Positions 3,028 through 55,008 of a stretch of 64,000 bases of DNA are shown one piece after another. The DNA is taken from contig JAFVTA010000061.1 in the NCBI GenBank assembly GCA_017503525.1, forward strand, positions 8,040 through 72,039. The letters run 5' to 3'. How positions within the stretch are numbered: the first letter of the stretch is position 1; each line of letters opens with the position of its first letter. The notes beneath the pieces were generated by a model, which saw only the letters and a list, made by a program, of their open reading frames with translations, was not told the origin of the DNA and ran no database searches. A program made the translations under genes and the position numbers. This DNA is from Clostridia bacterium (lineage in GTDB: Bacteria; Bacillota; Clostridia; Christensenellales; Borkfalkiaceae).

Positions 3028-3101
3028 TTTGACCTGCCTTTTGTAAACGGGAAAAGTCGATTTCGCCCTTTGGCACTTTTCCCCTATAATATACTATTCT
3101 A

Positions 3102-3953
3102 TTATAGCATTCCTTTATGAAAAAGACAAGCGTTGGACGGCAGTTTATTTGTCGCATTTGCCATTTTTTTGCTGATTATGCCTTGAATCGGGCGATATTC
3201 GTCCGTGCGCAGGCGTTTGCGCGAAAGCAAAGCACCCCCTTGATAGCGTTCCAAATACAGTTCACTCTTCACGCCGTTTTTCGGCGAACGCAGCACCTCG
3301 TCCCTATCCCCCTCTTTCACAATGGGCGCAGGCGGCGGAATTTCTCCTAAAACTTTGCTCACGATTTCATAGCGGCTGCCGTCGTTTTTACCAAAAAAAG
3401 TCACGCGGAGCGCGCCGCCTTGCACCTTTGCCGAAATATACACGGGAAAGGCATGTTTGTTAAAAAGCTGCAAATCGCTGGACGAGGACACCATGGCATC
3501 GCGCGAGGGCTGTACGTAGGACACCCGCAAGGAATGAGGGTGGTATTCCGTCACCTCTAATCCGCTTTTTAAAGCGGCGTTATACAAGGTCGTGCTTACT
3601 TGGCAAACGCCGCCGCCCACCCCTAAAACGTACTCGCCGCCCACGATAATTTTTGCCTGCTGATAGCCAGCCTCCGCTGTGCGCCTGCCCACCCATTGAT
3701 TGAAGGAAAATTCCCCGTAGGCTTGCACCGTCGCCCCGTCGACTAACCCTGCCGCAATCGCGATATTCTCGCACCTGCCCCTATCCTCTTCGCTAAAATA
3801 GGTCGTATACGAGGACATTCTCTCCCAACCGTAGGGATTTTCGGCAGCGACAGGAATATTTTGCCCGTTCTGGCGGAAAATTCCAAAAAAAGCGCATAAA
3901 AAAGCGCCTGCAAACGCAAGCGCCGTTAATTTTTTAGCTATTGTTTTTACCAT
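3102..3953 (-). CDS. VanW domain protein with N-terminal membrane anchor
   Basis: 283-aa ORF with a hydrophobic N-terminus. GGGVCQVSTTLYNAALKSGLEV...HSLRVSYV resembles the VanW family core. Confidence 0.75.
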   Translation of the reverse strand: MVKTIAKKLTALAFAGAFLCAFFGIFRQNGQNIPVAAENPYGWERMSSYTTYFSEEDRGRCENIAIAAGLVDGATVQAYGEFSFNQWVGRRTAEAGYQQAKIIVGGEYVLGVGGGVCQVSTTLYNAALKSGLEVTEYHPHSLRVSYVQPSRDAMVSSSSDLQLFNKHAFPVYISAKVQGGALRVTFFGKNDGSRYEIVSKVLGEIPPPAPIVKEGDRDEVLRSPKNGVKSELYLERYQGGALLSRKRLRTDEYRPIQGIISKKMANATNKLPSNACLFHKGML

Positions 3954-3990
3954 ACTCTACCCCTATGTACGCGTACACGGTAGCCTCATT

Positions 3991-4815
3991 TTAAAAAATC
4001 TTCACTTTTTTGAGTAGGTTTTCGTCCACGCGGTAAACGGGCTGACCCAAGGTATGTTCTCCGTCCTCTCTATGGGTATCCGAACCGCCGCTGACAAACA
4101 AACCCCACTTTTTGGCAAGGCCGCAAAAATACTGCGTTTCCTCGACAGTATGAGAAGAATATACCCCCTCTATACCGTCCACGCCGTAATCGGCAAGCTC
4201 TTTTAAAAACTCTTCCCTGCCGTTGCCGTCCATGTAAATACGGCCGGGGTGCGCCACGCTTGCAACACCCCCAAGCGCATGAATACAGTCGATCGCCTGC
4301 TTGGGCGAAGGTCTGCCGTAATTGCAGTTGGCAGGCTTGCCGATATTGAGATAGGTCATATACACTTCCCCTTCCGTCATGGGCAGGTACAGCGCCGCGG
4401 CGCGCGCAATGTGCATGGTATGAAAGGGCGAAGTCGGGTCTTTGCGCATACTCTCCACGTCCGCCATCGTGACGGGAATACCAAGGGCGTTAAACTTCTT
4501 CACGCTCTCTTCCGCGCGGATTTGCGACGCCTCTTTTCGCTCTTGTAAAAACCGTTCGTACCCGCTCCCCTTTTGGCAGCCGTAGCCAAGGATATGGATT
4601 TTATTCAAGCCCTCGTACGCGGAAATTTCCCAGCCCGAAAGATAGGCAAGCCCGTACTTTTTCGCCGATGCCCGTTTGACTTCCTCGCCCGAAAGGGTAT
4701 CGTGGTCGGTGATCGCAAGCAGGTCAAGCCCCTTCTCTTTCGCCATAGCGCAAAGGTAGTCGGGAGAATATAGCCCGTCCGAATAGGTGCTATGCAGGTG
4801 TAAATCAGCGCGCAT
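3991..4815 (-). CDS. PHP-domain phosphoesterase (TrpH/YciV-like)
   Basis: 274-aa ORF with MRADLHLHSTYSDG and ITDHDT metal-binding motifs of the PHP fold. 1-nt overlap with the recF stop. Confidence 0.8.
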   Translation of the reverse strand: MRADLHLHSTYSDGLYSPDYLCAMAKEKGLDLLAITDHDTLSGEEVKRASAKKYGLAYLSGWEISAYEGLNKIHILGYGCQKGSGYERFLQERKEASQIRAEESVKKFNALGIPVTMADVESMRKDPTSPFHTMHIARAAALYLPMTEGEVYMTYLNIGKPANCNYGRPSPKQAIDCIHALGGVASVAHPGRIYMDGNGREEFLKELADYGVDGIEGVYSSHTVEETQYFCGLAKKWGLFVSGGSDTHREDGEHTLGQPVYRVDENLLKKVKIF

Positions 4816-5900
4816 TATCCCTTAATCCTCCCGTTTTCAATGCGGATTTTATTACATTCCGCACCGTACAAAACGCGCTCGGCATGGGTGCAGGTAAGCA
4901 CCGTTTGCACGTCCGCGATACATTTGAGCAATTTTTTTCTTCTCGGCAAATCCAGCTCGCTCATGACGTCGTCCAAAACGAGAATAGGGTTCTCCCCCGA
5001 AAGGGTTTTGAAAATTTGCACCTCGGAAAGTTTAAGCGCAAGCGCCGCCGTACGCATTTGACCCTGCGAGGCGTAAGATTTTGCATCCGCGCCCCCGATT
5101 AAAACGTCCAAATCGTCCCTATGCGGCCCGACCGTGGTAAACCCAAGGCGTAAATCCTTTTCGTAGTTATTCTCTAAACGGCGGAGTAAATTTTTGGAAA
5201 TTTCCTCTTCCGTCCCCTCGTATTTTCTTTCGGGTTTAATGACGAGTTCCTCTCCCCCGTCCGTTAAAAAGGCGTGGTATTCCTTGGCGCAGGGGGCAAG
5301 TTTCTCCACAAACTCCGCGCGTTTTTTGACGATAACGGCGGCGTATTTGCAAAGCTGTTCGTCCCATACGGGCAGAGTGTCCAGCACCATGGAAATATCC
5401 CGATTTTTCAATAAGGTATTGCGTTGGTCGAGAATTTTATTATACCGCAAAAGAGCAGTATAATAGGCGGGCGAGGTTTGGGAAATGGAAATATTCATAA
5501 ACCGCCTTCTCTCGTCGGGACCGTCTTGGATAAGACGGAGTTCTCCCGGGGAGAAGAAAACGCTGTTGATATGCCCCATGAGGTCGGCATTTTTGGAAAT
5601 TTTACTCCCGTTCACGCGGATTTCCCGTTTGTTTTCGTAAATATCCGCCTCAATCGTCACGTTGCCGTAGCGGTTTTCCGCTTCGGCGATAATTTTCGCG
5701 GACTCCGCGCCCATGCGAATGAGCTGTTTGTCGTGGCGGATACGGAGCGAAGTACCCGTGTAAAGGTAAAAGACGGCTTCGGCGCAGTTGGTTTTGCCCT
5801 GTCCGTTTTTGCCGAACAGAACGTTAAGCCCCTCCGAAAATTCAAACTTTTCGCTCTCGTAATTTCTGAAATTTTGCAGGAATAATTTTTTTATTTTCAT
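4815..5900 (-). CDS. recF: DNA replication/repair protein RecF
   Basis: 361-aa ORF with Walker A GKNGQGKTN, an SMC-like signature region and C-terminal LVLDDVMSELD. Confidence 0.92.
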   Translation of the reverse strand: MKIKKLFLQNFRNYESEKFEFSEGLNVLFGKNGQGKTNCAEAVFYLYTGTSLRIRHDKQLIRMGAESAKIIAEAENRYGNVTIEADIYENKREIRVNGSKISKNADLMGHINSVFFSPGELRLIQDGPDERRRFMNISISQTSPAYYTALLRYNKILDQRNTLLKNRDISMVLDTLPVWDEQLCKYAAVIVKKRAEFVEKLAPCAKEYHAFLTDGGEELVIKPERKYEGTEEEISKNLLRRLENNYEKDLRLGFTTVGPHRDDLDVLIGGADAKSYASQGQMRTAALALKLSEVQIFKTLSGENPILVLDDVMSELDLPRRKKLLKCIADVQTVLTCTHAERVLYGAECNKIRIENGRIKG

Positions 5901-6029
5901 AATCCTTAAAAAACCCGCCGAAATTGCTTTCTTTTCCTCGAAATTTGTATTATAATTATATCAAATAATTTTCAAAAAAACAAGCTTAACGGATAAGCAA
6001 GCGTAAAATTTTTTACGGGGGATTAAAAA

Positions 6030-7364
6030 ATGGCAGAACATTCTCAACTTCAATTTATTTGGAAGCAGATCAGCGAACGGGTGGAAAACCTCATTTCACC
6101 CATTTCCTATAACACCTATATCAAAACCCTCGAACCCGTGGATATCCTCGGGCGTATTCTCGTGCTCAAAGCGGAAACTCCCCTCGGCGCATCCACCATT
6201 ATGAAAAAGCATGCGGACAAGCTCCGCGATGCCATGGCGAAATGCGACCTCGGCGTAAAAGATTTCCGTTTGGTGGTAGAGGGCAGCGAGGAATTCCCCT
6301 TGGAATACGAAGAGGATGCGTCGGATAACTTCCAAGCCTCCCCTATTAACAAGAGCTTTACCTTCGATTCCTTCGTTGCGGGCGCAAACTCCAAGTTCGT
6401 CTACGCGGCGGCAAAGGCGGTTGCGGAAGCCCCCGGCGAAAGCTTTAACCCCCTGTTTATCTACGGGGAATCGGGGCTGGGCAAAACCCACCTTATGCAC
6501 GCGATTGCCAACCACATTTCTCAAAAATATCCCGAAAAGAAGGTGCTGTATACCACCTGTGAAAATTTCTTGAACGAGTTTATCGATTCGATCTCGCAAA
6601 AGAGCAGCGCAAAGTTCCGTTTCCACTACCGCAACGTGGACGTACTCATGATCGACGACGTGCAGTTCCTCAAAAACAAAACGCAGGTGCAGGAAGAATT
6701 TTTCCATACCTTCAACGAGTTGTCGGCGCAAAACAAGCAAATCGTGCTTTCTTCCGACAGACCCCCGAAGGAAATCGCAACCTTGGAAGAGCGTTTGAGA
6801 ATGCGCTTTGAAGGGGGCATGATTGCGGACATTCAACCGCCCGATCCCGAAACCAAGCTCGCTATTTTAAGAAGAAAGGCGATCGATAGAAAATGCCCTA
6901 TCCCCGACGAGGTGTTGGAGTTCTTGGCAAAGGATTCGGGGCACGACGTACGTACTTTGGAAGGGCGTTTGACGAAGGTGATCTTCGCAAGCAAGCTCCA
7001 CGAAGAACCCATTACCCTCGACCTTGCAAGAAAAGCTTTAAGCGAATCGGTGAACGAAACGGAAGAACAAGAGGACGTGACCCCCGAAAAAATCCTTTCG
7101 GCGGTTTGCGGATACTTTAAGCAAAAGAAGGAAGACTTGCTTGGCAAAAACAAAAAAGCCGACCTCGTCAAAGCGCGCCAAATTTGCGCGTACCTGCTTT
7201 GCGATATGTTAACCCTTCCCCTCGTTGCCGTAGGCAATATACTCGGCGGAAGAGATCATACTACCATTATGTACGCTCGCGACAAAATGGAAAAGCTTGC
7301 GTCCTTGAACGACAAGGTTGCAAAGGAAATCGACGATATTAAAAATATTATCCTCAAAAAATAA
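6030..7364 (+). CDS. dnaA: Chromosomal replication initiator DnaA
   Basis: 444-aa ORF with AAA+ Walker [11 protein letters not shown] and a C-terminal DNA-binding domain ([11 protein letters not shown]). Confidence 0.96.
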
Positions 7365-7401
7365 TCCATTTACGCCCCTTTTCAAGGGGCATAACTTTAT
7401 T

Positions 7402-9282
7402 ATGAACAATACGCAAAAAACTTTTCTTGAATATGCCGCGGATGCGGTCGTCGTAGGCGCAGGGCACGCAGGATGCGAGGCAGCCCTCGCTTTGGCGCGC
7501 ACGGGTATCAAGACGGCGCTTTTGACTTTGAATTTAGACAGTATCGCGTTTTTGCCCTGCAACCCCTCTATCGGCGGCACGGCAAAAGGCCACCTCGTAA
7601 GAGAAATCGACGCGCTTGGCGGTCAAATGGGCTTGGTAGCGGACGACACCGCGCTGCAAATCCGTATGCTCAACGTCGGCAAGGGCGCGGCGGTGCAATC
7701 CCTGCGCGCGCAATCGGATAAAAACGCATACCACCGTGAAATGAAACGGGTGCTTGAAAATACCGAAAATTTGCGCATTATCCAAGCCGAAGCAACGGAA
7801 ATTTTAACCGAAAACGGCAAATGCTGCGGCGTAAAAACGCAGTACGGCGGCATGATCACCTGCAAAGCGGTTATCCTTTGCACGGGGGTATACCTCAACG
7901 GCGAAACGATCACGGGTCACGTGGTACAAAAATCGGGCCCTAACGGCTTTGCGCCTGCAAACGAGCTTACAAACAGCCTTGTCAAGCTCGGTTTTTCCGT
8001 GCGCCGCTTTAAAACGGGTACGCCCGCAAGAGTGGATAGCCGCACGATCGACTATTCCAAGTGCGAAGTCCAAAACGGGGATATAGATATCTATCCTTTC
8101 TCCTTTATGCACGATACGCCCCCCGAAAATAAGCTCCCTTGCTATTTGACTTATACAAATTTAGACACGCATAAAATTATCACGGACAACCTCGACAGAT
8201 CCCCTCTTTACGACGGAACCATTCTGTCCACGGGGCCTCGGTACTGTCCGTCTATCGAAACCAAGGTAGTGCGTTTTAAGGACAAAGAACGCCACCAGAT
8301 CTTTATCGAACCCGAAGGCGCGGACACCTATGAAATGTATATCCAAGGCATGTCCACCTCTATGCCCCACGACGTACAGCGTGCAATGTACGCCTCGGTA
8401 GCGGGCTTGGAACATGCGGATATTATGCGCTACGGGTACGCGATCGAATACGATTGTATCGATACCTTGGACGTCTTACCCACCCTTGAATTTAAAAAGG
8501 TGGAAGGCGTGTACACCGCAGGTCAAATCAACGGCACTTCGGGCTACGAAGAGGCGGCGGCGCAAGGTCTTATGGCGGGCTTGAACGCCTCGCTCAAACT
8601 CCGCGGACTCCCCCCCTTCACGCTGCGCCGTGACGAGGCGTATATCGGCGTGCTTATCGACGATCTCGTCACCAAAGGCACGGACGAGCCTTACCGTATG
8701 ATGACTTCCCGCGCCGAACACCGCATTTGTCTGCGCCAAGACAACGCCGATTTCCGTTTGACGGAAAAGGGAAAAGCGGTCGGCTTGGTCAGCGAAGAAC
8801 GGTATAACCGCTACCTTGCCCGCAAGGCAAAATACGAGGAATTACTTGCTTCATTGCAGACACGGGTACCTCAAAAACAGGCGGCGCCCTTCCTAACGCG
8901 CTACGGCTACGCAGAACCTAGCGGTAGCGTTTCCTATGCGGATATGTTAAAACGCTCTATCTCGTTAAAGGATATTATGGCGGAATACGGCGTGTTTAAC
9001 GAATACTCCAAAGACGTTCTCGAAACGGCGGAAATCACCGTCAAGTACGAGGGCTATTTAAAGCAAGGAAACGAGCTTATTGAAAAGGCAAAACGCTTGG
9101 AAGACAAACTTTTGCCCGAGGGTATCGACTATACCTCGATTAAGGGCTTGCGATTAGAGGCGCAGGAAAAGCTCAATCGAATCCGCCCCTTCAATCTCGG
9201 TCAAGCAGGCAGAATTTCAGGAGTAAACCCTGCGGATATTTCCGTGCTTATGGTTTGGTTGGCTACTCAAGGAGAAAACTAA
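7402..9282 (+). CDS. mnmG: tRNA uridine 5-carboxymethylaminomethyl modification enzyme MnmG
   Basis: ORF 7318..9282 with start moved to ATG 7402 (MNNTQKTF...). FAD motif [12 protein letters not shown]; full-length GidA-like. Confidence 0.95.
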
Positions 9283-10340
9283 TGAAGAAAATACTTGCTT
9301 TGGCGTGCGCCGCAACGATTGGCGTAACCTCTTTTACAGCTTGCGATTTCAACCTTTTCAAAAAGAACGAAGGGACGGCGAAGAATATTATTTTGCTTAT
9401 CGGCGACGGTATGGGTGAAAACCATATCCAAAACGCCCTTACGTACTTCGAGCTTACCGAACCCCGTTTTATGGCGGACAGGCAGGGCAGTATCGCAACG
9501 AAATCAAAAAATAATGCCGTCACGGACAGCGCGGCGGCTGGTACGGCACTTGCCACAGGGCAAAAGGTGAACAACGGCGAGATTGCGTACCATAACGGTA
9601 AGAACATCCAAACGATTGCCGAACTTGCCAAAAAAGCAGGCAAAAAAGTAGGTATCGTAACAACGGATACCTTGGATGGCGCTACCCCCTCGGCATTCTC
9701 CGCGCACGCGAAAGATAGAGATGATAGCGACGATATCGTTTCTTGTCAATTAGCCACTGGCTTTGATTTATTCATCGGAGAGATGGACGACGGTTTTTAT
9801 AACAATTATGAAGCCGCATTTGAAAGTAAAGGATATTCCTTTGCGTCTTCCCCTGAAGAAATGGTAAGCTATGCAAGCAGTGACAAGCTGATTGCAACCC
9901 TCCCCAACGTGCGTTCTAATTATCGTGAGGATACGAAGTACGATTATCAATTAAAAGATATCGTTGCCTTTGCTACCGAGTTTTTGGATAATGAAAACGG
10001 TTACTTCCTTATGGTAGAAAGTGCGCATATTGATAAGTACAGCCACAACAACGAGATAGTAAACGCCCTTTGCGAAGTGCGTTCCTTCTTCGATACCATG
10101 GATTACTTATACGATACCGTAAGCGAGGATACGGCAATTATTCTCACCGCCGACCACGAAACGGGGCGTTTGAGCCTTGCCAAGTCCAAAGCCGAAGTGG
10201 ACAACTACCTTTACAACTCCTCGGGACATACGGGCGTAGACGTGCCTATCTTTATGAAAAACGTGCCCTACACGCTTACGGGCACGGTGCAAAATACCGA
10301 AGTGTTTGAAATTTGTAAGAAACTGTTTGGATTAACCTGA
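9282..10340 (+). CDS. Alkaline phosphatase family lipoprotein
   Basis: ORF 9255..10340 with start moved to ATG 9282 ([21 protein letters not shown] lipobox). GDGMG and TDSAAAGTALATG alkaline-phosphatase active-site motifs. Confidence 0.85.
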   Translation: MKKILALACAATIGVTSFTACDFNLFKKNEGTAKNIILLIGDGMGENHIQNALTYFELTEPRFMADRQGSIATKSKNNAVTDSAAAGTALATGQKVNNGEIAYHNGKNIQTIAELAKKAGKKVGIVTTDTLDGATPSAFSAHAKDRDDSDDIVSCQLATGFDLFIGEMDDGFYNNYEAAFESKGYSFASSPEEMVSYASSDKLIATLPNVRSNYREDTKYDYQLKDIVAFATEFLDNENGYFLMVESAHIDKYSHNNEIVNALCEVRSFFDTMDYLYDTVSEDTAIILTADHETGRLSLAKSKAEVDNYLYNSSGHTGVDVPIFMKNVPYTLTGTVQNTEVFEICKKLFGLT

Positions 10341-10612
10341 CGAGAGTCGAACTCGAAAGGTTTTGACGGCAAAAAATGGCATAATACTTCGTTGAACTTC
10401 TTGACAAACCGTCAGGGTTTGCCTGCGAAGTCCGCCTTGTCTTCTTCTCATTTTTTGCTCGTAAAAACTGCGCAGCACCTTAAAAGGAATATTTTTCAGC
10501 AGATTTTGGCGAAGGTGGACGCAGTTGTATATAAATACTACAAGAACGCATTTGACGAAATATGCGAAAAATAAACTTTTAAGGCTTACGAGTTCGACTC
10601 TCGTCAGGTTAA
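10332..10612 (+). ncRNA. Candidate structured RNA, clamp element copy A (281 nt)
   Basis: Perfect 24-bp closing stem (10332..10355 with 10589..10612). Interior is homologous to 39223..39444, including a 50-nt block (10521..10570) identical at 44/50 positions by hand count. A plus-strand intrinsic terminator follows. Confidence 0.5.
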
Positions 10613-10632
10613 GATAATCGTAATAAACGCAT

Positions 10633-10671
10633 ACCTGCCCCGTGGGATTTCCCACGGGGCAGGTGTTTTTT
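10633..10671. terminator. Intrinsic terminator between convergent units
   Basis: ACCTGCCCCGTGGG/CCCACGGGGCAGGT hairpin followed by a T-run on the plus strand; lies just past the stop of the minus-strand GT2 gene. Confidence 0.75.
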
Positions 10672-38784: not shown

Positions 38785-38812
38785 AAAGCCTCGCTATTGC
38801 GAGGCTTTTATT
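38785..38812. terminator. Intrinsic terminator between convergent genes
   Basis: AAAGCCTCGC/GCGAGGCTTT hairpin. Confidence 0.7.
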
Positions 38813-39182
38813 ATAACGGTATTCCAAAGAAATTATCCTTGCCCGAATTTAATTCCAACAAAAGGATAGAGGCGATAAACGCTCGGCGTTCGTCGATACT
38901 CGCTCTCTTAAATAAGTGCTTGCGTTTAAAAGCGCGGTATTGCTTGGGATATAACGCCTTAACGGACGGAAACCCGTACACGCCGTCTACGCAAGTGACA
39001 AGATTGATTTCTTCACCGCCCGACACCTCGCGCCAGTCGAAAAAGTTTTTGTCCTTTTTATAACGGCAGATATACACGCAGCTGCTATCTCCGCCCTTTT
39101 GATAGGAATACTCAAAGACAAAGCCCTTTTCCATCAAAGGCAGGGTTAATAATTTAATTTTTTCTGCGGATTGTACTTCCAT
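38811..39182 (-). CDS. Hypothetical protein (123 aa)
   Basis: ORF 38811..39206. I prefer ATG 39182 (MEVQSAEKIKLL...) with AAGGA upstream, because earlier codons would lie inside the clamp-element stem. No recognisable domain. Confidence 0.5.
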   Translation of the reverse strand: MEVQSAEKIKLLTLPLMEKGFVFEYSYQKGGDSSCVYICRYKKDKNFFDWREVSGGEEINLVTCVDGVYGFPSVKALYPKQYRAFKRKHLFKRASIDERRAFIASILLLELNSGKDNFFGIPL

Positions 39183-39195
39183 AGTTATCCTTTTA

Positions 39196-39471
39196 TAGCC
39201 AATCAAGACCGAATTGAATCAGGTTTTTGATGGCAGATTTTCTCTAATACTGCGTTAAAATCCTCGGTAAACCGTTTGGTTGCCCTGCGGTTTTGCCTTG
39301 TCTTATCCAAAATCTGCTCGGCAAAACCTGCAAGGCATCTCAAAGCAAGGATTTTTCGATAGATTTTGACAAAGGCGGTTGCAGTTGTATCGACATACTA
39401 CAAGAACGCATTTGGCGAAATATACGGAAAAGACTGCTTTGAGACTGGTTCAATTCGGTCTTGATTGGCTA
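39196..39471 (+). ncRNA. Candidate structured RNA, clamp element copy B (276 nt)
   Basis: 27-bp closing stem (39196..39222 with 39445..39471) with one pair, T39219-G39448, that is U-G only on the plus strand. Interior homologous to copy A. Plus-strand terminator immediately 3'. Confidence 0.5.
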
Positions 39472-39500
39472 AAGGGGCGTTTTTACGCCCCTTTTGTTGT
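39471..39500 (+). terminator. Intrinsic terminator after clamp element B
   Basis: AAAGGGGCG/CGCCCCTTT hairpin followed by TTTTGTTGTT. Confidence 0.7.
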
Positions 39501-43850: not shown

Positions 43851-44025
43851 GGCTATATCATAGAAAACGATTGATTAGTGATTTATCACGGTTTGACGAG
43901 GAAAACACAAAAAAGACCAGCGTTTTTTGAGGGCGCATACCCCCAGCGGTATGAAACCGAGGAAAACGCGAAGTATTTTGCAGGGTTTTTCCGTCAAAAA
44001 TCAATCGGGTGAGGTGATAGAGCCT
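43851..44025. other. 175-nt rod-like imperfect hairpin element
   Basis: GGCTATATCA/TGATAGAGCC, CGATTGATT/AATCAATCG and TTTGACG/CGTCAAA pair end to end. Lies between the T-box promoter and the stop of the 44027..44653 gene. Confidence 0.4.
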
Positions 44026-44026
44026 A

Positions 44027-44653
44027 TTACTTAATAAACAAATTTTCCACTTTATACTCTTTCAAAGCCGCGTCGATCATACCGCGGTTATACACCTTGC
44101 GGGTAAGCAGGTACGAGATGACGACGTCCTTCACGATCGCCATATCCATAACCTCGCCGCACAGCGCAAGCAATGCAACGGTATCCTCGTAGGAAAAATT
44201 CCCCGTCAACGCAAGGGAAAGCACGAGGTTTTTCGAGGGCAAGAACTTGCCCTTGCAAATCCCCTGCCAAATTTCCGCGGATACGTTTAAACTTTCAAGC
44301 GCGCCTTCTTCCGTCAAGCCGTACTTATCAAGCAACGTCTTTAAGCCCTTGTAGACGGCGTATTTGGAGTAATGCTCCTTGATACGGGCAAACAGCCCAA
44401 GCGTACGGAACGAGAAGGAAAACGTGATATCCGTCATGCGCGTTTTTAACTCGGCAAGTAAGGATTTTTTCTCTTTTTGCTCTGCAAGACACATGGTTTC
44501 GGGGGGCAGGGTATAGGCGTACACTCTGCCGTACTCGTCCGTTTTCGTGCGTTGCATGACGGGCATTTCATACCCGGGCAAAATACAAAGCTTATCGTAA
44601 TTTGCATATTTTTCGCAAAAATATTCGTCTAAATCGGTTAAAAAATCGTACAT
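44027..44653 (-). CDS. Hypothetical protein with possible C-terminal HTH
   Basis: 208-aa ORF. The C-terminal part (LNVSAEIWQGICKGKFLPSKNLVLSLA) looks XRE-HTH-like; no other recognisable domain. Confidence 0.55.
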   Translation of the reverse strand: MYDFLTDLDEYFCEKYANYDKLCILPGYEMPVMQRTKTDEYGRVYAYTLPPETMCLAEQKEKKSLLAELKTRMTDITFSFSFRTLGLFARIKEHYSKYAVYKGLKTLLDKYGLTEEGALESLNVSAEIWQGICKGKFLPSKNLVLSLALTGNFSYEDTVALLALCGEVMDMAIVKDVVISYLLTRKVYNRGMIDAALKEYKVENLFIK

Positions 44654-54757: not shown

Positions 54758-55008
54758 AAATTTTTTACCTCCTTTAAGCGGAAACCGCCTGACATAAAAA
54801 ATACCTTACACCGCAGCGGCATAAGGACACAATACTTGTAATAAGTTTATTGCCTACGCCTCGGCGAGCGGTTGCCCATCAAACCTTTCGGTACTCACTT
54901 TCTACGGTTTCGTTGATTTTTACTATGTTATTATATCATCTCCGTCAAAGGCAGTCAACTAATTTTAACCGCCTTTGACGAGATTTTTTCATTTTTTCCT
55001 AATTTCGA
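54758..55008 (-). ncRNA. Probable L10 (rplJL) leader / rplA terminator region
   Basis: 250-nt untranslated spacer between rplA and rplJ with several hairpins. This is the position where the L10 leader is known in Bacillota; the structure was not verified. Confidence 0.45.

Follow-up and report, generated by a model that had tools for sequence, protein, structure and literature searches.

The window, i.e. the whole 64,000-nt stretch of DNA analysed, was scanned at 26 ORFs, all of housekeeping type and none encoding a transposase. Two elements bounded by long inverted repeats, copies A and B, were studied in it (Table 1). Copy A is situated in the 3′ UTR of a phosphatase gene, upstream of the terminator; the original prediction had it starting on the phosphatase stop codon. 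The stop codon (TGA, 10338-10340) lies within the left arm; the last sense codon of the phosphatase gene (ACC, 10335-10337) and its stop are therefore supplied by the element. Copy B is antisense to both flanking genes, alaS and a 123-aa gene. The third, decayed relative was recognized from a weak nhmmer match and by reading of the sequence, and has imperfect ends (TA-GGCTCTATCA...TGATATAGCC).

Table 1. Positions of the two copies, their parts and the adjoining host features in the window
Feature	Position	Strand	Remarks
Left TA of copy A	10333..10334	.	Putative target-site duplication; empty sites L017, L018, L019
Copy A body, class A, 275 nt between TA dinucleotides	10335..10609	+	Missing at the orthologous site of three sister genomes
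Left terminal inverted repeat of copy A, ACCTGACGAGAGTCGAACTCG	10335..10355	+	Recurs at unrelated sites
5′ domain of copy A	10359..10469	+	Helix P2 around an apical hairpin
3′ domain of copy A	10478..10584	+	Long imperfect hairpin closed by CCTTAAAAG/CTTTTAAGG; includes the 50-nt conserved block
Right terminal inverted repeat of copy A	10589..10609	+	tRNA-like T-arm and acceptor strand: ACGAG TTCGACT CTCGT CAGGT(TA)
Right TA of copy A	10610..10611	.	Empty-site comparison
Host intrinsic terminator, phosphatase/glycosyltransferase convergent pair	10631..10666	+	Outside the element; same hairpin at empty sites L017-L020
Left TA of copy B	39196..39197	.	Empty-site comparison
Copy B body, class B	39198..39469	+	Missing at the orthologous site in L026, L027, L028
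Right TA of copy B	39470..39471	.	Empty-site comparison
Host terminator hairpin of alaS (minus-strand gene)	39471..39494	.	Copy B lies in the T-tract
Third, decayed relative, 5′ domain only	43851..44026	-	nhmmer E 0.006; boundaries approximate

The arms of copy A (10332-10355 and 10589-10612) are complementary over 24 bp with no mismatch, confirming the predicted perfect stem, and were lengthened by the repeat finder to 28 nt (96%). For copy B, for which a 27-bp stem had been claimed, arms of 27 nt were indeed found (39196-39222 and 39445-39471; 96%), but the sole mismatch makes one of the pairs a plus-strand U-G. Homology between the two interiors was confirmed by nhmmer (E = 1.8e-25), blastn (72.8% identity across 191 nt) and alignment, with 44 of 50 positions identical between 10521-10570 and 39381-39430. 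The stems had been described as entirely different. Their identity is only about 45%, but a TA-RCC tip, a GTTCRAYTC/GARTYGAAC motif and AG-GTTTT at the inner end are common to both.

Both sites were found empty in sister species. At the A site of L017, L018, and L019, the stop codon of the phosphatase orthologue is followed by approximately 10 nt and the same terminator, with the element absent; these sites match the window minus the element and one TA in length and reading frame. The same stop-codon-to-terminator junction was present in L020, followed by a different downstream gene. Removal of the element and one TA from the A site gives the frame GGA TTA AGA TAA (GLR*), and this restored end agrees with homologues finishing LK or LR. 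At the B site, L026-L028 carry CCCCTTTTTCAAAAGG, and the window carries CCCCTT[TA]...[TA]TAAAAGG. These junctions are consistent with duplication of a TA target, and fit equally an element that itself ends in TA inserted beside a TA. L015 was considered as an empty site for the window at ~49.9 kb and was dropped because of its differing upstream context.

Copy B has the same orientation in the other assemblies of its species (L029-L031). This bears on the possibility of an inverton, in which a recombinase flips the segment between the inverted repeats. Long inverted repeats around ~225 bp of intergenic DNA would suit such a switch, but it is barely conceivable here: the B locus has one orientation across four independent assemblies, both orientations of any one locus were not seen in the assemblies, no internal promoter was found, no recombinase gene was present among the neighbouring ORFs scanned, copies are far from randomly oriented with respect to genes, and the presence/absence pattern and TA flanks indicate transposition.

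MAGs of Candidatus Scatosoma and related Clostridia contain approximately 20 further copies, scattered over unrelated sites, and the family totals at least 20 copies in at least 5 MAG lineages. Scanning with a 20-mer of the core gave 13 genomic and 3 metagenomic loci, every one from Scatosoma or a Clostridia MAG and each with different flanking genes. Because almost all copies were recovered with this exact 20-mer as bait, the apparent conservation of the block is biased. The copies are 275-279 nt long, below the MITE limit of about 500 bp, and have no coding capacity; the classes differ by 1-nt indels, which would be unexpected for a conserved ORF. Plasmid and phage collections searched by BLAST with copy A yielded no match, the viral scan with the class-B terminus gave nothing, and a search of papers for four element sequences found none.

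The termini of the copies fall into three conserved classes of inverted repeats, A, B, and C, which are 25-27 bp long and all conform to TA-RCC...AG-RTTTT; TA-ACCTGACGAGAGTCGAACTCG, TA-GCCAATCAAGACCGAATTGAAYCAG, and TA-ACCAAAGCAATATAATCTAAGCC are among the sequences. Class-A termini occur in 8 copies, class-B termini in 7, and class-C termini in 2 (L004 and L008), at unrelated loci. The left terminus of copy A, for example, recurs in L002, L004, L006, L008, L009, L010, and L011. Among the 15 copies having both ends, 14 are flanked by TA on both sides, the exception being L009 (GA...TC in place of TA...TA), and in 11 the right TA is followed by A. One interior is common to the three classes, and a mosaic copy (L013b) carries a class-A-like interior within class-B ends. 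Internal-deletion forms of 126-159 nt (n = 3; at least one, L005, joined at short direct repeats), mini-hairpins of ~31-34 nt (n = 2), and nested copies were also found, and in L032 the sequence TTGGCTA is the remnant of a microhomology deletion.

Conserved termini, TA flanks, empty sites, deletion derivatives, and nested copies together indicate a MITE family. Copies A and B are thus very likely to be members of a non-autonomous DNA transposon family specific to Candidatus Scatosoma and related gut Clostridia. The original prediction had held that the termini were not conserved inverted repeats of transposase type, and had named further copies with conserved termini and target-site duplications as evidence that would speak against it. 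Such copies were what we found: their termini are conserved, and TA flanks them, at sites unrelated to each other, and the two copies in the window are themselves insertions relative to sister species.

The distribution of sequence divergence along the element deserves separate mention. MITE termini are ordinarily the best-conserved part. Between the present classes, the termini are the most divergent part and the interior is conserved, which goes against the MITE reading. So do the terminal changes that are often mirrored in both arms (L008, L009, L013b, and the ACTC/GCTC lineage), which are unexplained by sequence-specific binding of a transposase.

Terminator-like hairpins do follow both copies, as predicted for the plus strand, but they are the host genes' own and pre-existing, since they are present at the empty sites too. 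Promoter scans of both strands of A and B found none, and inspection by eye revealed only wrongly spaced hexamers. Family members were located inside operons, in 3′ UTRs, in terminator T-tracts, and beside unrelated genes; of the 12 copies lying no more than 100 nt before a start codon, 11 were in sense and 1 in antisense orientation. Replication strand was considered as the cause of this bias and rejected, because the GC skew around the copies was positive in 11 cases versus negative in 8. The GC skew of the window showed no switch at dnaA.

Folding of copies A and B gave minimum free energies of -110 (z = -9.5) and -118 kcal/mol (z = -11.0), respectively, far below those of shuffles, with about equal values for the minus strands (z = -10.3 and -11.2). 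In the 5′ domain, helix P2 (GGTTTT.ACGGCAAAAAATG with CATTTTTTGC.CGT.AAAAC) encloses the apical hairpin; compensatory changes preserve this helix in all three classes. The 3′ domain has 36 pairs, and 97.4% of the cells in the alignment are paired. Changes on both sides were found at 14 of these 36 pairs versus 6.1 ± 1.2 in shuffles (0 of 500 shuffles equalled this), and slid controls gave 1-3 such pairs. A further pairing count gave 26 pairs changed on both sides, against 17.8 ± 2.1 for shuffles. The diverged copy L020 retains the nested 3′ hairpin through new compensations. These comparisons of aligned copies point to a real interior structure of two independent hairpin domains, closed by the terminal stem and kept by compensation across all three terminal classes, and from this we infer that the fold has a function.

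The predicted presence of compensated internal helices with wobbles preferring the plus strand was upheld for the interior as a whole, but not for the three helices originally named. In those, 88% of cells are paired, and changes on both sides were seen at 2 pairs, against 2.0 for shuffles (459/500); the proposed crossing of helices has no covariation support, and the inter-domain helix GTCCGCCTT/AAGGTGGAC is impossible in L020. Regarding the strand, a test by counts of G-U versus A-C in RNAalifold structures was discarded as biased, given that 72 G-U and 8 A-C also come out of the minus-strand fold. Strand preference was judged instead from pairs that the long hairpin keeps in a fixed register; among pairs varying on one side, plus-strand G-U occurred at 9 pairs versus 3 singleton A-C cells. 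The minimum free energy of the interior was lower on the plus than on the minus strand in 14 of 15 copies. After control for base composition the plus-strand preference is modest, and z is equal on both strands. For the terminal stem, the MAFFT cross-class alignment is offset by one column, so its statistics understate pairing; script counts made per class gave 11 plus-strand versus 11 minus-strand G-U mismatches, with no preference for either strand.

In agreement with the predicted absence from known RNA classes, Rfam scans at the gathering threshold, which covered tmRNA, tRNA, group I introns, ribozymes, HEARO, ROOL, and GOLLD among other families, detected only an L10 leader elsewhere in the window, and copy A gave only noise even when E values up to 10 were admitted. 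The original prediction had proposed a new class of stand-alone structured RNA, either a noncoding RNA gene or a cis-regulatory RNA, with the stem as a sequence-independent clamp and the copies as paralogous genes. Interior covariation, plus-strand wobbles, sense-orientation bias, and an interior kept while the class stems differ would all be expected of such an RNA, as would the Rfam result. As a non-mobile gene it is nevertheless largely refuted by the genome comparisons, and we regard it as very improbable: A and B are clean insertions with TA on both sides, termini are conserved within classes at unrelated loci, neither strand has a promoter, truncated and nested copies exist, and the copies stand in operons, 3′ UTRs, and T-tracts beside unrelated genes.

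A related alternative combines mobility with RNA function. The interior would be a functional plus-strand RNA module carried on interchangeable transposon ends, in other words a mobile structured-RNA gene. The compensated two-domain fold, the plus-strand wobbles, and the sense orientation of 11 of 12 gene-proximal copies are compatible with it, and we consider it possible though unlikely. If it were true, RNase III would free the module from host transcripts at the 24-27 bp stem, class A might be freed by tRNA-processing enzymes at its acceptor/T-arm end, and the module would act alone, e.g. as an intergenic processing or insulator signal or as a cofactor of its own mobilisation.

The resemblance of class-A ends to an acceptor stem plus T-arm also raises the question of a tRNA- or tmRNA-derived element, excised by RNase P/RNase Z or moved through RNA in a SINE-like manner. 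The right arm (ACGAG-TTCGACT-CTCGT-CAGGTTA) has all conserved T-loop positions, the left end TAACCTG finishes a 7-bp acceptor stem, and the sense bias would be accounted for. In the viral scan, the class-A terminal 21-mer matched only phage tmRNA and tRNA genes, at their 3′ ends, and no elements. At an 80% threshold, ARAGORN reported most class-A copies as tRNAs with ~207-nt introns that span the element exactly, but these calls were on both strands, and the default setting found 0 in the window and 0 in the 15 copies. The tmRNA mode at low thresholds gave inconsistent tag peptides on both strands and was dismissed as noise. Furthermore, classes B and C have no T-arm hairpin yet resemble class A in orientation bias and in the behaviour of their copies, a cloverleaf would be much less stable than the 24-bp duplex, and exact TA duplication indicates a DNA transposase. 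Such an origin is accordingly judged highly improbable.

The strand preference and structural conservation could be explained without RNA if the copies were single-strand-DNA elements, i.e. palindromes of REPIN/RAYT type or derived from IS200/IS605, mobilised by a Y1 HUH transposase through recognition of folded hairpins. Compensated hairpins with G-T wobbles confined to one strand, arms that change in mirror fashion, and a class-independent interior would be accounted for. Those families, however, are not characterised by long inverted repeats at the ends or by symmetric TA flanks; IS200/IS605 elements have subterminal hairpins and lack terminal repeats and duplication. The orientation of the copies is not tied to local GC skew (positive in 11 cases, negative in 8), and no Y1 transposase was seen among the scanned window ORFs. 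We did not find the copies to belong to either family, and movement of this kind is improbable.

Returning to the MITE reading, IS630-family elements such as ISY100 insert only at TA, which is duplicated, and inverted repeats of 24 bp are enough in cis (PMC2170065). The present copies likewise fit insertion into TA with duplication of these 2 bp, and a transposase of IS630/Tc1-mariner type acting in trans is the most likely agent; as no transposase was found, this assignment is based solely on the TA flanks. No cognate autonomous element was found in the window or in ~250 kb of copy-bearing loci. In the proposed mechanism, a DDE transposase of this type would bind the inverted repeats in trans and excise the element, which would be inserted at TA through a 2-bp staggered cut, with repair copying the TA. 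The three classes with one interior would imply related transposases or recombination between subfamilies. Once inserted, the element would most likely be co-transcribed with host genes, and its RNA fold would have to be tolerated by the host. RNase III could cut the 24-27 bp stem, which is long enough for the perfect duplex of about two helical turns that the enzyme needs, and could thereby separate the messages on either side, as has been suggested for the Correia, ERIC, and bcr1 repeats.

The analysis adds a repeat family without match in Rfam, the plasmid and phage collections, or the papers searched, in an uncultured genus of gut Clostridia. The element breaks MAG assemblies (several contigs end within a copy), sits between tightly packed genes, rewrites gene ends, as seen with the phosphatase that terminates within copy A, and marks recent genome change at the species level. 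With three terminal classes and one conserved fold, it makes a good system in which to ask if repeats of this sort are parasites that are tolerated because selection has kept them harmless within mRNA, or RNA processing signals that have been domesticated.

Several known systems are close to this family. Stowaway MITEs of plants, derived from Tc1/mariner, target TA, measure a few hundred bp, carry terminal inverted repeats, and have strong structure potential; they differ in being eukaryotic and unrelated in sequence, and are not known for internal domains that covary. RUP of Streptococcus pneumoniae, a MITE that an IS630-family transposase moves in trans (PMC2229807), shares TA insertion and the 2-bp duplication with the present element, as do IS630-Spn1 and ISY100 (PMC2229807; PMC2170065); its cognate IS is known by inverted-repeat similarity, and none was found here. 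Correia, ERIC, and RUP all combine TA termini with highly paired transcripts (PMC2229807). ERIC (IRU) of enterobacteria is also co-transcribed with flanking genes, and its effect on mRNA varies with its orientation, a precedent for orientation bias (PMC2229807). It is, however, a 127-bp imperfect palindrome with 7 bp inverted repeats, from a different phylum and without sequence similarity.

The Correia (NEMIS) elements of Neisseria are likewise non-coding and intergenic, with terminal inverted repeats of ~24-26 bp and TA termini with duplication, and they are co-transcribed with their neighbours, the long RNA stem being a proposed RNase III target (PMC2229807). They are simple foldbacks of 100-155 bp, some with an IHF site, and share no sequence similarity with the present element, which is ~275 bp long and has two independent internal hairpin domains and three terminal classes. 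The bcr1 element of the Bacillus cereus group is, like ours, an interspersed repeat of Firmicutes; it is transcribed, as ours may be, and in its predicted RNA compensatory changes keep a cruciform with two independent stem-loops (PMC3184786). It differs in length (~155 bp), in having 5-bp direct repeats instead of TA, and in sequence. On present evidence, the family represents neither a new RNA class nor a new mobility mechanism. It is a known kind of element, unusual only in its conserved interior fold, and is a clear addition to the few bacterial MITEs, such as ERIC, Correia, and bcr1, whose internal structure seems to be under selection.

The two copies of the element in the window, A and B, were homologous in their interiors as originally predicted (nhmmer E value 1.8e-25; blastn 72.8% over 191 nt), with 44 of 50 positions identical in the 50-nt block. 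The closing stem of copy A (10332-10355 with 10589-10612) was likewise borne out, pairing perfectly and being extended to 28 nt at 96% by a repeat finder; the arms of copy B (39196-39222 and 39445-39471) were 27 nt long, with a single mismatch that reads as U-G on the plus strand. Both copies folded much better than shuffled sequence, with z of about -9.5 to -11 on both strands. No Rfam match to the element was found.

With the 20-mer ATACTACAAGAACGCATTTG as bait, scanning one genome per species detected 13 loci, all in Candidatus Scatosoma MAGs and one goat-caecum Clostridia MAG, and a metagenome scan added 3 further loci; nearly all copies were obtained by exact match to this 20-mer. Flanking genes differed for every copy, genomic or metagenomic, and the adjoining genes include those we take to be dnaK, topA, uvrA, dnaB and trmL, and pnp. 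Contig ends fell within the element, frequently at an identical internal position, in the fetched loci L001 and L012 (locus position 1), L003 (locus end), L014, L020 (locus end), and L030 and L031 (position 1). With so many contigs broken inside it, the repeat fragments MAG assemblies built from short reads, and its copy number is an underestimate.

The termini, which had been thought not to be conserved, were conserved within classes across copies. Class A (TA followed by ACCTGACGAGAGTCGAACTCG) was found in 8 copies, class B (TA followed by GCCAATCAAGACCGAATTGAAYCAG) in 7, and class C (TA followed by ACCAAAGCAATATAATCTAAGCC(C)AG) had a homologous, more diverged interior; all three start with TA followed by RCC and run into AG followed by RTTTT. 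Two classes can coexist in one genome, and one copy in L013 (L013b) combined class-B ends with a class-A-like interior. TA was present on both sides in 14 of the 15 complete copies. In a class-A copy at L009 3375-3653, the outermost TA...TA was replaced by GA...TC, a mirrored change by which the terminal base pair is retained; in L008, L013b and the ACTC/GCTC lineage, positions further inside the terminal repeats were altered in the same mirrored way. Such changes are not accounted for by sequence-specific binding of a transposase.

Empty sites were available for both window copies. At the A site, phosphatase orthologues (75-83% identity) had the stop codon, about 10 nt and the same terminator hairpin, and lacked the element; the window reads TTTGGAT[TA]ACC...GGT[TA]AGATAATCGTAATAAACGC and L017 reads TTTAACTTGAAATAATCGTAATAAACGC. 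Removal of the element and one TA gives GGA TTA AGA TAA (GLR and stop), with the length and frame of homologues ending in LK or LR; the window phosphatase ends in LFGLT, ACC TGA being supplied by copy A. At the B site, where the window has CCCCTT[TA]...[TA]TAAAAGG, CCCCTTTTTCAAAAGG...ATG comes after the alaS terminator in three sister genomes. The terminators initially noted after both copies are those of the host, as the same hairpins were present at empty sites. Copy B was complete and in the same orientation in another same-species assembly, and two more such assemblies break inside it, the retained end keeping that orientation. Adjoining copy B is a gene (38811-39182, minus strand) for a 123-aa protein that lacks a Pfam domain yet is widely conserved, which had 333 homologues at E < 1e-10 and lay between alaS and proC in all contigs examined. 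Conserved termini together with target duplications, which the original prediction had itself named as the mark of a MITE, identify the element as a new family within a familiar type, the TA-targeting bacterial MITE; its terminal classes number three, and support for its conserved fold is unusually good.

Decayed and rearranged copies were also found. At the B site of a sister species (L032 1-140), the element was reduced to its final 7 nt (TTGGCTA), joined to the host at a TTGA microhomology, and the alaS terminator was lost too; this is an old shared insertion later removed by imprecise deletion, with TTGGCTA as the remnant. Three internal-deletion forms measured 126-159 nt, at least one of which (L005) has its junction at short direct repeats. 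Class-A terminal sequence alone made up two mini-hairpins (about 31-34 nt), TAACCTGACGAG-cgtggaa-CTCGTTAGGTTA and TAACCT-TTCGAGTTCGACTCTCGTCAGGTTA, which are either solo ends or products of extreme internal deletion. Within the goat-caecum MAG, class-A copies abutted class-C copies at two places, in tandem at one and inverted at the other, and the class-C left terminus was missing in L008; this suggests insertion into or beside other copies. The third relative in the window retained P2, the long-range helix closing the 5' domain (GACGGAAAAAC/GTTTTCCTCGTC), and an apical hairpin (CATACCGCTGGGGGTATG), and lay in sense orientation just past the stop codon of a minus-strand gene (44027-44653). In L013, comparison of 3066-3129 with 2880-2960 showed a partial duplicate, about 180 nt away, of the L013b left end together with about 40 nt of the flank upstream of it; it arose either by local duplication or through misassembly.

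Coordinates of the element copies, their derivatives and one further RNA feature
Feature	Location	Strand	Remarks
Copy A	window 10332-10612
Copy B	window 39196-39471
Decayed third relative, 5' domain only	window ~43851-44026	minus	imperfect ends, TA followed by GGCTCTATCA...TGATATAGCC
Mini-hairpin	L001 6805-6854
Mini-hairpin	L003 4059-4091
Abutting class-A and class-C copies	L008 3833-4365
Abutting class-A and class-C copies	L004 3295-3795
Ribosomal protein L10 leader	window 54788-54925	minus	only window Rfam hit at gathering threshold (44.5 bits vs 44)

Other features were noted beside the copies. In L013, five or more GTGAATTG / CAATTCAC motifs, 10-25 nt from one another, flank a class-B copy lying upstream of a dprA-like gene (about 3990-4140 and 4425-4470, minus strand); this array may be a set of binding sites and has no relation to the element. 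Window 4815-9282 groups a recF-like gene (minus), dnaA (6030-7364, plus) and mnmG (plus), with mostly minus-strand genes downstream; GC skew was negative throughout the 64-kb window, with no switch at dnaA.

The element is more than a simple foldback and has three parts, namely the terminal stem, a 5' domain with a long-range closing helix, and a 3' domain forming a long imperfect hairpin. Over 14 copies drawn from classes A, B and C, 97.4% of cells were paired for the 36 pairs of the 3' domain, and double-sided changes affected 14 pairs versus 6.1 ± 1.2 in shuffled (0/500) and 1-3 in slid controls. All cell counts given here overstate independent events, because copies share ancestry. The diverged copy L020, found via nhmmer and not the 20-mer, kept the 3' hairpin, whose central helix carried new compensations. 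The 5' domain helix was GCAAAAAATG/CATTTTTTGC in class A, GCAGATTTT/AAAATCTGC in class B and GCGAAGAATTTA/TAAATTCTTTCGC in class C. A whole-element model from a MAFFT alignment gave 26 double-sided pairs versus 17.8 ± 2.1 shuffled (0/500). G-A and T-T mismatches were conserved across classes, and their persistence indicates that the palindromes are not simply homogenised.

The three helices originally predicted, GTCCGCCTT/AAGGTGGAC, AACTGCG/CGCAGTT and GGCAAA/TTTGCC, were paired in 88% of cells, but their double-sided changes were at chance (2 vs 2.0; 459/500). The nested 3' hairpin is a competitor of the first helix, which is unable to form in L020; with this and covariation at chance, the pseudoknot proposed from the crossing helices is unsupported. 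Among one-sided variable pairs, plus-strand G-U occurred at 9 pairs and was the majority state at 3, and A-C in 3 singleton cells only. In 14 of 15 copies the plus strand gave the lower interior MFE, a modest folding preference; shuffle-normalised z-scores were equal on both strands, and the terminal stem showed no strand asymmetry (11 vs 11).

Of the copies positioned up to 100 nt upstream of a start codon, 11 were in sense orientation and one, window copy B, was antisense (two-sided binomial p ~0.006), several copies lying 0-10 nt from a start codon or between neighbouring genes. Local GC skew was positive around 11 copies and negative around 8; the bias thus does not track skew, and transcription rather than replication is its likely cause. 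As the termini are palindromic, the bias must come from the interior, in which no promoter or internal terminator accounting for it was found.

The class-A right arm (window 10589-10611), ACGAG-TTCGACT-CTCGT-CAGGTTA, is a canonical T-arm with a 7-nt acceptor strand, whose stem is completed by the left end. In a viral scan, its 21-mer matched only 3' ends of phage tmRNA and tRNA genes, being identical to those of tmRNA genes and one tRNA-Leu on phage contigs (L021 3632-4045, L022, L025, L024, L023 6387-6460). ARAGORN called most class-A copies intron-containing tRNAs at a relaxed threshold and found no tRNA or tmRNA at default settings. The hairpin is absent from classes B and C, which behave like class A, class B keeping only the loop motif GGTTCAATTC without the stem; for these reasons the tRNA-like end is a lead, not a mechanism.

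Insertion exclusively at TA with a 2-bp duplication is a property of the IS630/Tc1-mariner family, for which 24-bp inverted repeats are enough in cis (PMC2170065), and the TA flanks of the element match it. RUP, a pneumococcal MITE, is thought to be mobilised by IS630-Spn1 on similar grounds (PMC2229807). Given these family properties and the RUP precedent, an IS630/Tc1-mariner-type transposase probably mobilises the element in trans; none was found among the 26 window ORFs or in the fetched loci. For mRNA effects that depend on orientation, ERIC is a precedent (PMC2229807). The compensated two-domain fold has its precedent in bcr1, a transcribed Firmicutes repeat whose two-stem cruciform is maintained by compensatory changes (PMC3184786).
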